Source: an uncultured Chloroflexia bacterium
GTDB lineage: Bacteria > Chloroflexota > Limnocylindria > Limnocylindrales > CSP1-4
Assembly: GCA_963763775.1 (NCBI GenBank)
Contig: CAVXPZ010000003.1
Span: forward strand, 256,001 to 320,000
Length of the DNA stretch: 64,000 bases
Reading direction: 5' to 3'
The notes beneath the pieces were generated by a model, which saw only the letters and a list, made by a program, of their open reading frames with translations, searched no databases and was not told the DNA's origin. Made by a program: the position numbers and the translations under genes. Shown piece after piece: positions 42,989-44,933 of the stretch (positions within the stretch are counted from its first letter, which is position 1; every line of letters begins with the position of its first letter).

Positions 42989-44933
42989 GTGATCCTCGCC
43001 GGCATCGCCATCGGGCTCATCCTCGGGCTCCTGGCCGGTGGCCGCATCACGAACCTCGGCTCCGTCAGCCTCCGCTGGGTCCCGCTGCTGGTCGTCGCCC
43101 TGATCCTCCGGTTCGGGACGGAATTCCTCCTCGCGGACGGCAACGCCATCGCCGATGCGCTTCGCGTGCCGCTCCTCGCGACATCGTTCGCGCTCCTCCT
43201 GGCGGGGATCTGGGCCAACCGCACCTACCCGGGCATGACGCTCGCATTCGTCGGGACGCTGTCGAACGGGCTCGTGATCCTCGTCAACGGCGGCTACATG
43301 CCGATCTGGGAACCGAGCCTGGTGGCGGCCGGCTTCACGACCGCGGACGTCTCGACGACGATCCACACGATCCTGCCGGCCACCCTCGATGCGAGCTTCC
43401 TGCTCCATCTCGGCCCGCTCGCCGATGTCATCCCGATCCCCATACCGCCGATCCAGAACGTGGCCTCGGTCGGCGATGTCTTCCTGATGTTCGGCCTGGC
43501 GTTCTTCCTCTTCGCCAGCGTGGTCCGCGTCCCCGAGGCGGTCTCGGGCAGCGCAGGGACGGGTCTGTCGCCCGCGATGTCCGGGGTCGCGTCACTCGAC
43601 CGGCCGGTGGTGCTGGGCGGCCAGGCCGGACGCCTCGCGTCGCCGTCGCGGATCGCGATCCCCGTCACGCCAACCCGTCGTCGGCGAACGTATCCGACAC
43701 CACCCGTATGTCCGCCTCGCGCTCAACGGCTCGTTCTCGGCGCTGTGGGCCGGGCAGTTCATCTCGATCCTGGGCGACCGCATCAACACGGTCGCGCTGG
43801 CCGCCATCGTCTATGGCACCACGGAGTCGCTCACGGCCGGCGCCTTCGCGTTCGTCGTGGCGACGCTCCCGAACCTCTTCCTCTCGCCGTTCGCGGGAAC
43901 GCTCGTCGACCGCTGGGACCGCAAGGAGGTCCTGGTCGTCAGCGACATCCTGCGGGCAGCCCTCGTGCTGCTCATCCCGCTGGCGGTCATCGTCAATCTG
44001 CTCTTCGCCTACGTCCTGATCTTCCTCGTGACCGCGGTGTCGATCTTCTTCCGGCCGGCGCGGGTGGCGATCCTCCCGCAGCTCGTCGACGACGGCGACC
44101 TCGTCACGGCGAACTCGGCGATGTGGATCGGCGAGACCTCCGCGGACATCATCGGGTACTCCATCGCTGGCCTCCTCGTGTGGGGACTCGGGACGGCGCT
44201 CCCCCTCGCGTTCTGGCTCGATGCCGTGACGTACCTCGCGTCCGCCATCCTGCTGGCGACGCTCATCGTGCGGCCGATCCCACCCGAGGAGGCCGAGCGG
44301 GCGGCCATCGAGCGCGACACGCTCGGGTTCTTCGGACAGATGCGCGAGGGCCTCCGATTCCTCCGCCGCGAGCCGACGCTCCTCGCGAACACGATCCAGG
44401 CGTCGGTGGCGCAGTGCACGGTCGGGGCGCTGCTCGCGCTGATGTACGCCTACGCGCTCCAGGTCTACGCCAGCTCGGCGATCGACTGGAAGGCGGCGTA
44501 CGGCTTCCTCGAGACGAGCGTCGGGGCCGGCAACCTGCTCGGCGGTTTCGTCATCGGGCTCGTCGGCGCGCGACTCGCCAAGGGACGCTCGATCATCGGC
44601 GGGTACGTCGTGTTCGGGGTCTTCACGATCCTGATGGCGCTCTCGAACCAGCTCCCGATCGCCCTCGCGTTCGGGTTCGGCGCCGGGGTCGCGAACATGG
44701 CGTTCGTGATCCCGAGCCAGACCCTGTTCCAGGAGCGGACGCCGGCCGGGCTGATGGGACGGGTGGTCAGCTTCCGATTCGCCCTGGTGTTCGGGGCGAT
44801 GACGGTCGCCGCCGCCATGGCCGCGTTGTTGCTGCTCGTCCTGAGCGCCACGACCGTCCTCGTGATGTTCTCGGTCGTGACGATCGGGGCGGGGCTGGCG
44901 GGATGGCTCGTGCCGGCCCTTCGTGACGCGTGA
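42989..44933 (+). CDS. DUF5317-like membrane domain fused to an MFS transporter (apparent frameshift near 43670)
   Basis: GLLAGG.ITNL, NGLVILVNGGYMP, LADVIP, SVGD; MFS frame reads ERIRHHPYVRLALNGSFSALWAGQ..GTLVDRWDRK with no start codon of its own before TM1. Confidence 0.8.

Follow-up and report, generated by a model that had tools for sequence, protein, structure and literature searches.

A single gene encodes a DUF5317-MFS fusion protein

How many proteins are encoded at positions 42989-44933 of the window, the 64,000-nucleotide stretch of DNA from an uncultured Chloroflexia bacterium analysed here, and what might they do? This segment encodes a DUF5317 domain and a DHA3/MFS_3 transporter of the major facilitator superfamily (MFS), which lie in two different frames. 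Its features, in window positions, are as follows.

42989..43543, + strand: DUF5317 domain, residues 1-185, with five membrane helices and a four-stranded outer sheet (from Pfam, the alignment and an AlphaFold2 (AF2) model)
43544..43733, + strand: cytoplasmic linker of ~60 residues with the conserved stretch TGLSPA...LDRPVVLGG...ASPS; the frame changes inside it
43670..43676, + strand: frame break, CCAACCC, one base longer than in an in-frame contig of ~96% identity
43674..44933, + strand: MFS transporter domain of the DHA3 / MFS_3 type, encoded in the other frame; stop codon 44931-44933

In the frame that starts at the GTG at 42989, residues 26-174 match PF17248 (DUF5317) in Pfam with an E-value of 8.7e-25 and 87.9 bits, against a cut-off of 25 bits, and the match spans 149 of the 151 model positions (2-150). 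The MFS half matches both MFS_1 (PF07690; 86 bits, cut-off 33.4) and MFS_3 (PF05977; 69.7 bits, cut-off 27) in Pfam. Its best NCBIfam match is TIGR00900, an H+ antiporter subfamily, at 191.4 bits and thus below the cut-off of 319.6, followed by lower-scoring matches to Mef, EntS and LplT models. No PDB sequence matched the MFS half in phmmer at E up to 0.001.

An earlier note on this DNA, made from the letters alone, had claimed that the MFS frame lacks a start codon before its first membrane helix, that the DUF5317 frame lacks a stop at the junction, and that a single indel would therefore yield one protein of ~650 residues. Inspection of the frames confirmed the first two points. The MFS frame is open from 43488 to 44933 and its first ATG, GTG or TTG is the GTG at 43857, past the first helix; the DUF5317 frame runs stop-free to 44926 and forms a 645-aa open reading frame (ORF) whose last 400 residues are Arg-rich junk. 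Codons of the DUF5317 frame have a third-position G+C content of at least 0.9 until ~43665, and those of the MFS frame reach the same level from ~43700 onward. When the two translations were aligned to an intact orthologue (L003), they covered residues 9-245 and residues 245 onward, respectively; because they abut at residue 245, the break lies between 43662 and 43680, within the poorly conserved linker. The switch in third-position G+C, the alignment to L003 and the in-frame contig described below agree on one protein of ~645 aa, as the note had expected. A separate MFS gene starting from the ATG at 43708 was also considered and rejected: it lies in the third frame, would need an indel of its own and would leave DUF5317 without a stop, and the orthologues read through. 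Positions 42989-44933 of the window are one gene for one membrane protein of ~645 aa, composed of DUF5317, a linker and a DHA3/MFS_3 transporter. For annotation, this means that the 645-aa ORF with its junk tail is a frameshifted fusion gene, neither a novel long protein nor two genes.

The frame break is most likely an assembly error

If the two frames belong to one gene, is the break between them real? A public contig (run X3, record 6; 244 bases, depth 2.8, ~96% identical) matches the window up to 43669 and reaches a shared GTCGTCG after six further letters, against seven in the window, which restores the frame; it is a single low-depth contig that ends 13 letters beyond the break site. No public sequencing run containing the window's own DNA was found, the best word share being 0.17.

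When 41 related genomes were searched, the DUF5317 part was found in 22 of the 24 genomes of the genus, and together with these hits, tblastn of both halves against 20 loci allowed the gene to be assessed in 21 genomes of the genus, the window's genome included; the copy in G014 is cut by a contig end. The fusion gene is unbroken in 11 of the 21, with open frames of 654-701 aa where both ends are present, and broken in the other 10, each at another place. It is intact in all seven assemblies of 100 contigs or more and broken in 10 of the 14 assemblies of 20 contigs or fewer, where contig counts are rounded and a low count is taken as a sign of long reads. The source genome has 4 contigs, at 87% completeness. 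Breaks that lie at scattered places and only in assemblies of 20 contigs or fewer form the pattern of indel errors, and the break here is most likely a one-base error of long-read assembly. Programmed frameshifting was rejected, as the breaks in the other assemblies sit at different places.

The break might instead be genuine in this strain, making the gene a fresh pseudogene or leaving DUF5317 with a junk tail and no working MFS. The extra base is present in the assembly, no source reads were found that contradict it, and the third-position G+C is undisturbed on both sides, so that any such mutation would be recent. We nevertheless consider this unlikely, given that breaks are confined to the assemblies with few contigs (10/14 vs 0/7) and vary in position, that the site is a C-rich run, and that the nearest public contig reads in frame. 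This judgement is separate from those on function given below and is not to be summed with them.

The fusion is common in the class

The earlier note had named the case in which homologues are always two separate genes as decisive against a fusion. A search for full-length fusions found otherwise, since single-ORF fusions are common. A length-restricted search gave 692 proteins of 353-1124 aa with a match to the DUF5317 part, and PF17248 and PF07690 occur together in 119 of the 120 matches listed. The source labels of these listed fusions are 'MFS transporter', 'DHA3 macrolide efflux-like', Candidatus Limnocylindrales and Chloroflexota. Both domains were found by Pfam in one ORF in all four proteins scanned, namely the genus orthologue P0003 and those at loci L077, L100 and L101, which together cover both larger families.

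As a family of bacterial membrane proteins, PF17248 itself is widespread. DUF5317 cluster representatives number 2088 at E up to 0.001, and PF17248 is present in 64 of 201 sampled Chloroflexota genomes. Open frames of 620-753 aa around PF17248 were found only in the window's family f1 (7/7 besides the window) and in f3 (10/12), a second family of the same class (Limnocylindria-type Chloroflexota); elsewhere the PF17248 frames reach at most 471 aa. In a third family of the order, with genomes of ~1.1 Mb, DUF5317 was found in 0 of 16 genomes. One unpublished genome (G078) entered some tallies of the analysis, but none of its sequence was used and it underlies no claim made here. A full-text literature search, which did not extend to supplements, returned no paper naming DUF5317 or PF17248. 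The protein is an ordinary MFS core joined to an unusual, uncharacterised membrane domain, a module that is described in no paper found in our searches.

The fusion gene closes an operon with a riboswitch, two micropeptides and an HD-GYP gene

With which genes is the fusion expressed? Upstream of it, the following features were identified, the first being the neighbour upstream of the operon.

37631..41074, + strand: STAND-type regulator, 1147 aa (ORF)
41071..41100, + strand: promoter-like site TTGACC-18-TATAGT, 10/12 consensus matches (1 found vs 0.1 expected; a consensus match only)
41141..41224, + strand: aptamer of a cyclic di-GMP (c-di-GMP) riboswitch, c-di-GMP-II, RF01786 (61.4 bits, gathering score 53.5, E 4.4e-12, full model)
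41212..41244, + strand: terminator-like hairpin over the 3' end of the aptamer, a candidate expression platform (8-pair stem, weak T run)
41275..41328, + strand: micropeptide 1, 17 aa, MTAESIKGWLPESIKGW, with no hydrophobic segment and with a strong Shine-Dalgarno sequence, AAAGGAGGAA
41341..41430, + strand: micropeptide 2, 29 aa, MKARIVRVLVALSSVAMIALAGGASLRGF, signal-peptide-like: basic at the N-terminus, then one hydrophobic helix, with an AGGA motif ahead of a 5-residue tail
41507..42910, + strand: membrane HD-GYP phosphodiesterase, a polytopic N-terminal domain followed by HD_5 (alternative start TTG 41435)

The fusion gene is the last of an operon that consists of the promoter-like site, the riboswitch, the two micropeptide genes, the MASE9-like HD-GYP gene and DUF5317-MFS. 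This arrangement is conserved: of 19 orthologous loci, drawn from both families, 18 have the c-di-GMP-II riboswitch at the corresponding position and in the same orientation, and at all 17 orthologous loci whose flank is long enough, the gene immediately 5' of the fusion is the HD-GYP gene. The hairpin at the 3' end of the aptamer is present in the minimum free energy fold of the leader, whose z-score of -1.13 is not significant. In Pfam the regulator reached 22.4 bits for Trans_reg_C, 21.7 for BTAD and 19.3 for AAA_22, together with weak TPR matches (TPR_2), all of them below the cut-offs.

Both families encode versions of micropeptide 1 at the orthologous loci; these are 9-17 residues long and share the C-terminal pattern [IVAT]-K-[GAS]-[WY]. 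In micropeptide 2, the tail AGGA[SA]x[KR]G[FW] followed by the stop was found in 16 of the 18 riboswitch-bearing loci, and A-x-AGGA is invariant among the 14 copies of alignment A3. The tails of the two micropeptides follow one pattern, in which a small, a hydrophobic, a basic, a small and an aromatic residue lead to the C-terminus. As a separate observation on the window's micropeptide 1 (41275-41328), its tail is doubled, reading ESIKGW-LP-ESIKGW; the doubling recurs at L084 and L087, and most relatives have a single version of 9-10 residues.

The HD-GYP gene scores 131.2 bits for HD_5 and 68.5 bits for HD, and its translation contains the motifs HDVGK and HHHEWYNGSGYP. A preprint in which MASE9 was defined from TM1467 of Thermotoga maritima leaves the signal of MASE9 open and gives the HD-GYP motif as HHExxDGxGYP-type (bioRxiv 10.1101/2021.11.05.467447, Galperin and Chou). 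Like the MASE9-HD-GYP proteins of that preprint, the window's upstream gene joins a polytopic N-terminal domain to HD-GYP; unlike them, its N-terminal 245 aa score 17 bits against MASE9 (PF20972), under the cut-off of 24.3, with 27 bits at the related locus L060. PF17248 also has matches in the T. maritima genome that served as a control, and the word DUF5317 was not found in the preprint.

Small membrane proteins behind c-di-GMP riboswitches have a precedent in Clostridioides difficile, where, according to one study, 58-aa membrane proteins lie behind class I c-di-GMP riboswitches and are off with c-di-GMP; its authors state that these proteins have no homologues outside C. difficile (PMC13724677). 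As in the operon studied here, those proteins are membrane-associated, are encoded directly behind c-di-GMP riboswitches and act in signalling (PMC13724677). The riboswitch there is of class I and the proteins have no DUF5317, HD-GYP or MFS partner; the two systems are parallel in concept and not relatives.

DUF5317, HD-GYP and MFS modules are linked beyond the class

Does DUF5317 keep such company where it is not fused? Across the phylum, the neighbours of 26 standalone DUF5317 genes comprise 8 HD_5 genes, 11 BTAD genes, 1 HisKA gene and 3 HD_5-MFS genes, so that 23 of the 26 adjoin a signalling gene. The three HD_5-MFS genes belong to family f17. In each of its three genomes, a membrane domain, HD_5 and MFS_3 are encoded in one frame, in ORFs of 846, 847 and 874 aa.

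L122:2672-5209, - strand: HD_5-MFS_3 ORF of f17
L123:2858-5398, + strand: HD_5-MFS_3 ORF of f17
L124:2586-5207, - strand: HD_5-MFS_3 ORF of f17

Downstream (3') of this ORF lie a standalone DUF5317 gene, an AI-2E family transporter and a metallophosphoesterase, and upstream (5') lie the end of a LuxR-type regulator, an AGGA mini-ORF, which reads MKK..LLGAILAGGAN... or ..LAGTAGAQW, and a hairpin that carries a T run. The f17 MFS is 32% identical to the window's MFS (162 bits), and the best paralogue within the window's own genome reaches 94 bits. As judged from sequence, the occurrence of the same three large modules fused in alternative pairs argues that they work together. The class-wide fusion is in this respect genetic evidence that DUF5317, the transporter, a c-di-GMP phosphodiesterase with an orphan sensor and the AGGA peptides cooperate, and the HD-GYP-MFS fusion in another family supports this cooperation of the four parts.

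We also searched near DUF5317 genes for mini-ORFs that begin with basic residues, contain one helix and a small-Gly-Ala/Asp motif, and end in a short tail. Under a strict filter, such a mini-ORF lies directly upstream of DUF5317 at 5 of 25 loci; the controls gave 0 of 25 for the reverse strand, 1 of 24 for the downstream side and 0.05 for shuffles. A looser filter, applied without a control, found one at 10 of 26 DUF5317 loci. Of four further loci, two have a mini-ORF 5' of the HD-GYP gene, and at one of these two it is present as a tandem pair. At this locus, L125, two identical 31-codon mini-ORFs stand in tandem (906-1001 and 1062-1157 of the strand read), each with a strong Shine-Dalgarno sequence and each ending in ...VMAAGADSRWA; they lie 5' of an HD-GYP gene that precedes a standalone DUF5317.

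DUF5317 has an invariant Asn/Asp cluster predicted at the outer membrane face

What in DUF5317 could account for this conservation? In A1, an alignment of 30 DUF5317 sequences, the invariant residues are N93, N100, G102, M104, P105, D146, S160, G162 and D163. The motifs N-x6-NGGxMP, LAD and SVGD that the earlier note had picked out by eye are present and fall in these invariant columns (N93, N100-G-G-x-M104-P105, D146 and S160-x-G162-D163). In a larger set of ~350 sequences, which is biased toward the window's class, D146 is Asp in 359/360, and D163 and S160 are kept in 346/346 of the sequences fetched. Diverse standalone members from the phylum gave a similar picture, with D146, G162-D163, N93 and M104-P105 kept in 26/26, N100 in 23/26 and S160 in 25/26.

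An AF2 model built on A1 reached a pLDDT of 94.7 and a pTM of 0.87. In this model, the five membrane helices span residues 2-15, 31-49, 59-76, 83-99 and 161-179, and two short helices cover 20-25 and 53-57. The segment that joins the fourth and fifth membrane helices contains strands 104-107, 126-129, 146-150 and 157-160 and two more short helices. D146 starts strand 146-150, S160 ends strand 157-160 and D163 sits in the first turn of the last helix; from the strand register alone, the hairpin 146-150/157-160 should bring D146 near D163.

Basic residues are found in loops 16-30 and 77-82 and after helix 5, and loop 100-160 is acidic. The termini of MFS proteins are cytoplasmic, and the linker between the two halves contains no hydrophobic segment. 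From these loop charges, the cytoplasmic MFS termini and the linker, we infer that the N-terminus of DUF5317 is outside and its C-terminus inside, which would place the Asn/Asp/Ser-Gly-Asp cluster at the outer face beside the sheet.

This confidently predicted model matches no solved fold, our searches having returned only generic helical matches. Foldseek against the PDB gave a best E-value of 2.5 and TM-scores of at most 0.27; the top match of VIA-align among 48,161 chains, 76 residues of a helical repeat at Z 8.6, is at background level; and a second-look fold comparison with 68 chains gave a best Z of 6.4. When PDB sequences were searched with the DUF5317 HMM, only chance-level matches to cytochrome c' appeared (E 0.25). 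In the ESM Atlas only DUF5317 clusters were matched, and with the DUF5317 family skipped there was no usable match.

The source genome has a second, standalone DUF5317 of 184 aa at G000:C3:857905-858459 (- strand), seen as L022:4415-4966 (- strand). It is 31% identical to the window's domain in alignment A1, and the same type was found in three other genomes examined. Small membrane and DinB-like ORFs, so labelled from a reading of their sequences, adjoin it.

Possible roles of the DUF5317-MFS protein

What, then, might the fused protein do? Its sequence and gene context make a peptide-handling role plausible. In the scheme that we propose, DUF5317 would be an outward-facing processing site that docks the mini-protein (micropeptide 2), and the AGGA end of the mini-protein helix would sit at the same outer face as the conserved cluster of DUF5317. 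DUF5317 would cut the mini-protein after AGGA and thereby free the short C-terminal tail, and the fused MFS would export the leaderless micropeptide 1, which bears the same tail. The HD-GYP enzyme would detect both peptides through its membrane sensor domain, and c-di-GMP, through the riboswitch, would together with the peptides form a feedback loop on c-di-GMP breakdown.

Pro at position +1 blocks signal peptidase I, and several of the mini-proteins read ...GA-P, that is, with Pro at +1. MccC and some pumps of Escherichia coli are examples of MFS proteins that export small peptides. With the block by Pro at +1 and the existence of peptide-exporting MFS pumps in mind, we lean towards a dedicated peptidase and a peptide pump. 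As a whole, the scheme of peptide processing by DUF5317, export by the MFS and sensing by HD-GYP is tentative, and we would sooner expect some part of it to fail than all of it to hold. Its most specific form is unlikely: DUF5317 would be a new-fold family of outward-facing intramembrane aspartyl peptidases that cut at AGGA to produce extracellular signals of 4-9 residues, with a twin exported by the MFS and reading by a MASE9-type domain. If this peptidase family did exist, it would add a riboswitch-gated layer of peptide signals to c-di-GMP control and would provide the first candidate ligand for MASE9. The input of the MASE9-type sensor and the role of DUF5317 become simple experiments in any tractable carrier.

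The proposed scheme has parallels among known systems, each with clear differences. PCAT exporters are peptidase-containing ABC transporters for double-glycine peptides. They are similar in concept, in that a domain that may handle Gly-Gly peptides stands N-terminal on an exporter, in an operon with small peptide genes; the window's transporter, however, is an MFS protein with no C39 peptidase and no ABC domain, the putative site of DUF5317 faces outward and not the cytoplasm, and the Gly-Gly, instead of belonging to an N-terminal leader, closes a membrane helix at its C-terminal end. C39 peptidase and ABC ATPase were not found in Pfam scans of both halves or of the intact orthologues. In peptide signalling of the RRNPP type (Rgg-SHP, PlcR-PapR), short aromatic-tailed peptides are encoded beside a large TPR regulator and need processing and export. 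The short aromatic-tailed peptides of the window likewise adjoin a large TPR-containing regulator, although this regulator is of a STAND/BTAD type with weak matches and the output appears to be c-di-GMP turnover. LplT-Aas resembles the fusion in that a domain added to an ordinary MFS core couples transport to a further activity, and differs in that DUF5317 is an integral membrane domain, uncharacterised, and that in another lineage the same MFS is fused to HD-GYP.

Several points weigh against processing and export. DUF5317 appears to have no homology to any peptidase, and the roles of its members in cleavage, binding and transport are proposals. The standalone paralogue type of the class keeps all of the invariant residues and has no mini-ORF upstream at any of 4 loci, so that a mini-protein need not be what the site acts on. 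In the window's own mini-protein AGGA is followed by Ser, which ordinary signal peptidase I would be expected to accept as well. In family f17 the MFS is present and no micropeptide-1-like gene was seen, so that the MFS need not export micropeptide 1. Finally, the fusion of the MFS to a cytoplasmic HD-GYP domain fits a role in sensing or in a complex at least as well as export.

In a rival reading nothing is cleaved, and DUF5317 would be a non-catalytic membrane partner. As a scaffold or co-receptor governing the activity of HD-GYP, it would associate within the membrane with the AGGA mini-protein and perhaps also with the MASE9-like domain; the MFS would be a transport-coupled sensor or a mere member of the complex. 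Fusion of the modules in alternative pairs (DUF5317-MFS here, HD_5-MFS in f17) is typical of parts of one complex, and the position of DUF5317 beside signalling genes at most standalone loci and its lack of peptidase similarity in sequence or fold fit this reading too. Small membrane proteins are moreover known to tune membrane sensors, as MgrB does with PhoQ. Yet invariant Asp, Asp, Asn and Ser residues at one membrane face are more typical of a catalytic or ion-binding site, and the matching tails of a leaderless and a membrane-anchored peptide suggest that a free tail is read. Such a scaffold role is somewhat doubtful when taken singly, and nearly as likely as processing.

DUF5317 could also serve the transporter and be unrelated to the peptides, its outward Asn/Asp site binding a cation, a lipid head group or a substrate, so that the fused protein would be an efflux or flipping system whose expression merely comes under c-di-GMP control. 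This would agree with the paralogue type that keeps the site without a mini-ORF (0/4 loci), with the matches of the MFS half to efflux, LplT and EntS-type models, and with the AI-2E family transporter that follows DUF5317 in f17. It would not account for most DUF5317 genes adjoining HD-GYP or BTAD signalling genes and not transporters, nor for the enrichment of mini-ORFs with a shared motif directly upstream, and we regard a purely transporter-related role as improbable.

DUF5317 is not detectably related to LspA or prepilin peptidases

Is DUF5317 a member of a known peptidase family? In the earlier note, its Asn/Asp pattern had been likened to the active-site motifs of signal peptidase II (LspA; PF01252, Peptidase_A8, MEROPS A8), and the gene product to a peptidase-transporter fusion. 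The likeness is real at the level of local pattern. Both proteins are small and polytopic, have conserved Asn/Asp residues near the outer face beside a small beta-sheet and are tied to signal-peptide-like substrates or partners; the Gly/Asn-rich helix of DUF5317, its beta-hairpin with Asp and the N-V-x-S-x-G-D that opens its last helix are reminiscent of the LspA motifs GNxxDR, VVDF and FNxAD.

Profile comparison did not bear out a relationship. In a Pfam scan of the DUF5317 part (E up to 0.01), DUF5317 was the only family matched, with neither PF01252 nor A24 appearing. When A1 was compared by hhalign with A2, an alignment of 20 LspA sequences from the phylum, one match of 18 columns was obtained, with a probability of 14.7%; it pairs helix 1 of DUF5317 with the GGxxGN helix of LspA and thus lies outside the motif region. 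The first catalytic Asp of LspA stands in the motif GNxxDR (N93, D96 and R97 invariant in A2), and the matching DUF5317 helix, with N93 and N100 invariant, lacks any conserved Asp or Arg. The N/Q-V-x-S-x-G-D that opens the last helix resembles the FNxAD of LspA in pattern, with another spacing and without a supporting alignment. LspA was not among the matches from Foldseek, VIA-align or the second-look comparison, where by the rule of these tools a missing match does not exclude a fold.

LspA has four membrane helices, as against five, with the N-terminus outside, in the DUF5317 model. The mini-proteins have no lipobox Cys, and none of the 14 aligned contains any Cys. The source genome carries a canonical LspA (110.3 bits), and the open frame preceding it ends 7 bases before its start. 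Given the missing first catalytic Asp, the different helix number, the lipobox-free partners and the lack of profile similarity, it is highly improbable that DUF5317 is a diverged LspA homologue that shares its catalytic dyad. Two invariant Asp residues, D146 and D163, do exist as the note had proposed, and it was their equivalence to the LspA dyad that found no alignment support. Of the proposed peptidase-transporter fusion, the single protein and its tie to signal-peptide-like mini-proteins stand, and the link to LspA is not supported.

Homology to the prepilin peptidases (A24, GxGD type) was rejected as well: hhalign of A1 against A5, an alignment of 20 prepilin peptidases, gave a probability of 0.8%, and S-x-G-D in DUF5317 has an invariant Ser where A24 has Gly. 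By these comparisons, DUF5317 is not detectably related to either family.

Sequences downstream of the fusion gene

A gene for protein-L-isoaspartate O-methyltransferase (PCMT; 200.5 bits) at window positions 45829-46500 (+ strand) is ordinary and has no sign of operon membership. Just past the fusion gene, a tandem array of the hexanucleotide GAGCCC extends over 45142-45352, with ~36 copies and 74% matches, in a stretch of 81% G+C. Read on the + strand, the array would encode repeats of Glu-Pro, Ser-Pro or Ala-Arg according to the frame used. The surrounding open frames switch frame, so that this low-complexity gene may also hold indel errors. An ORF at 45401-45787 (+ strand) has one hydrophobic helix (IFVIATVVIFVAIILNGLFLG), which is followed by a long Pro/Ala/Ser-rich tail, and it may be the C-terminal part of a repeat protein starting near 45041.

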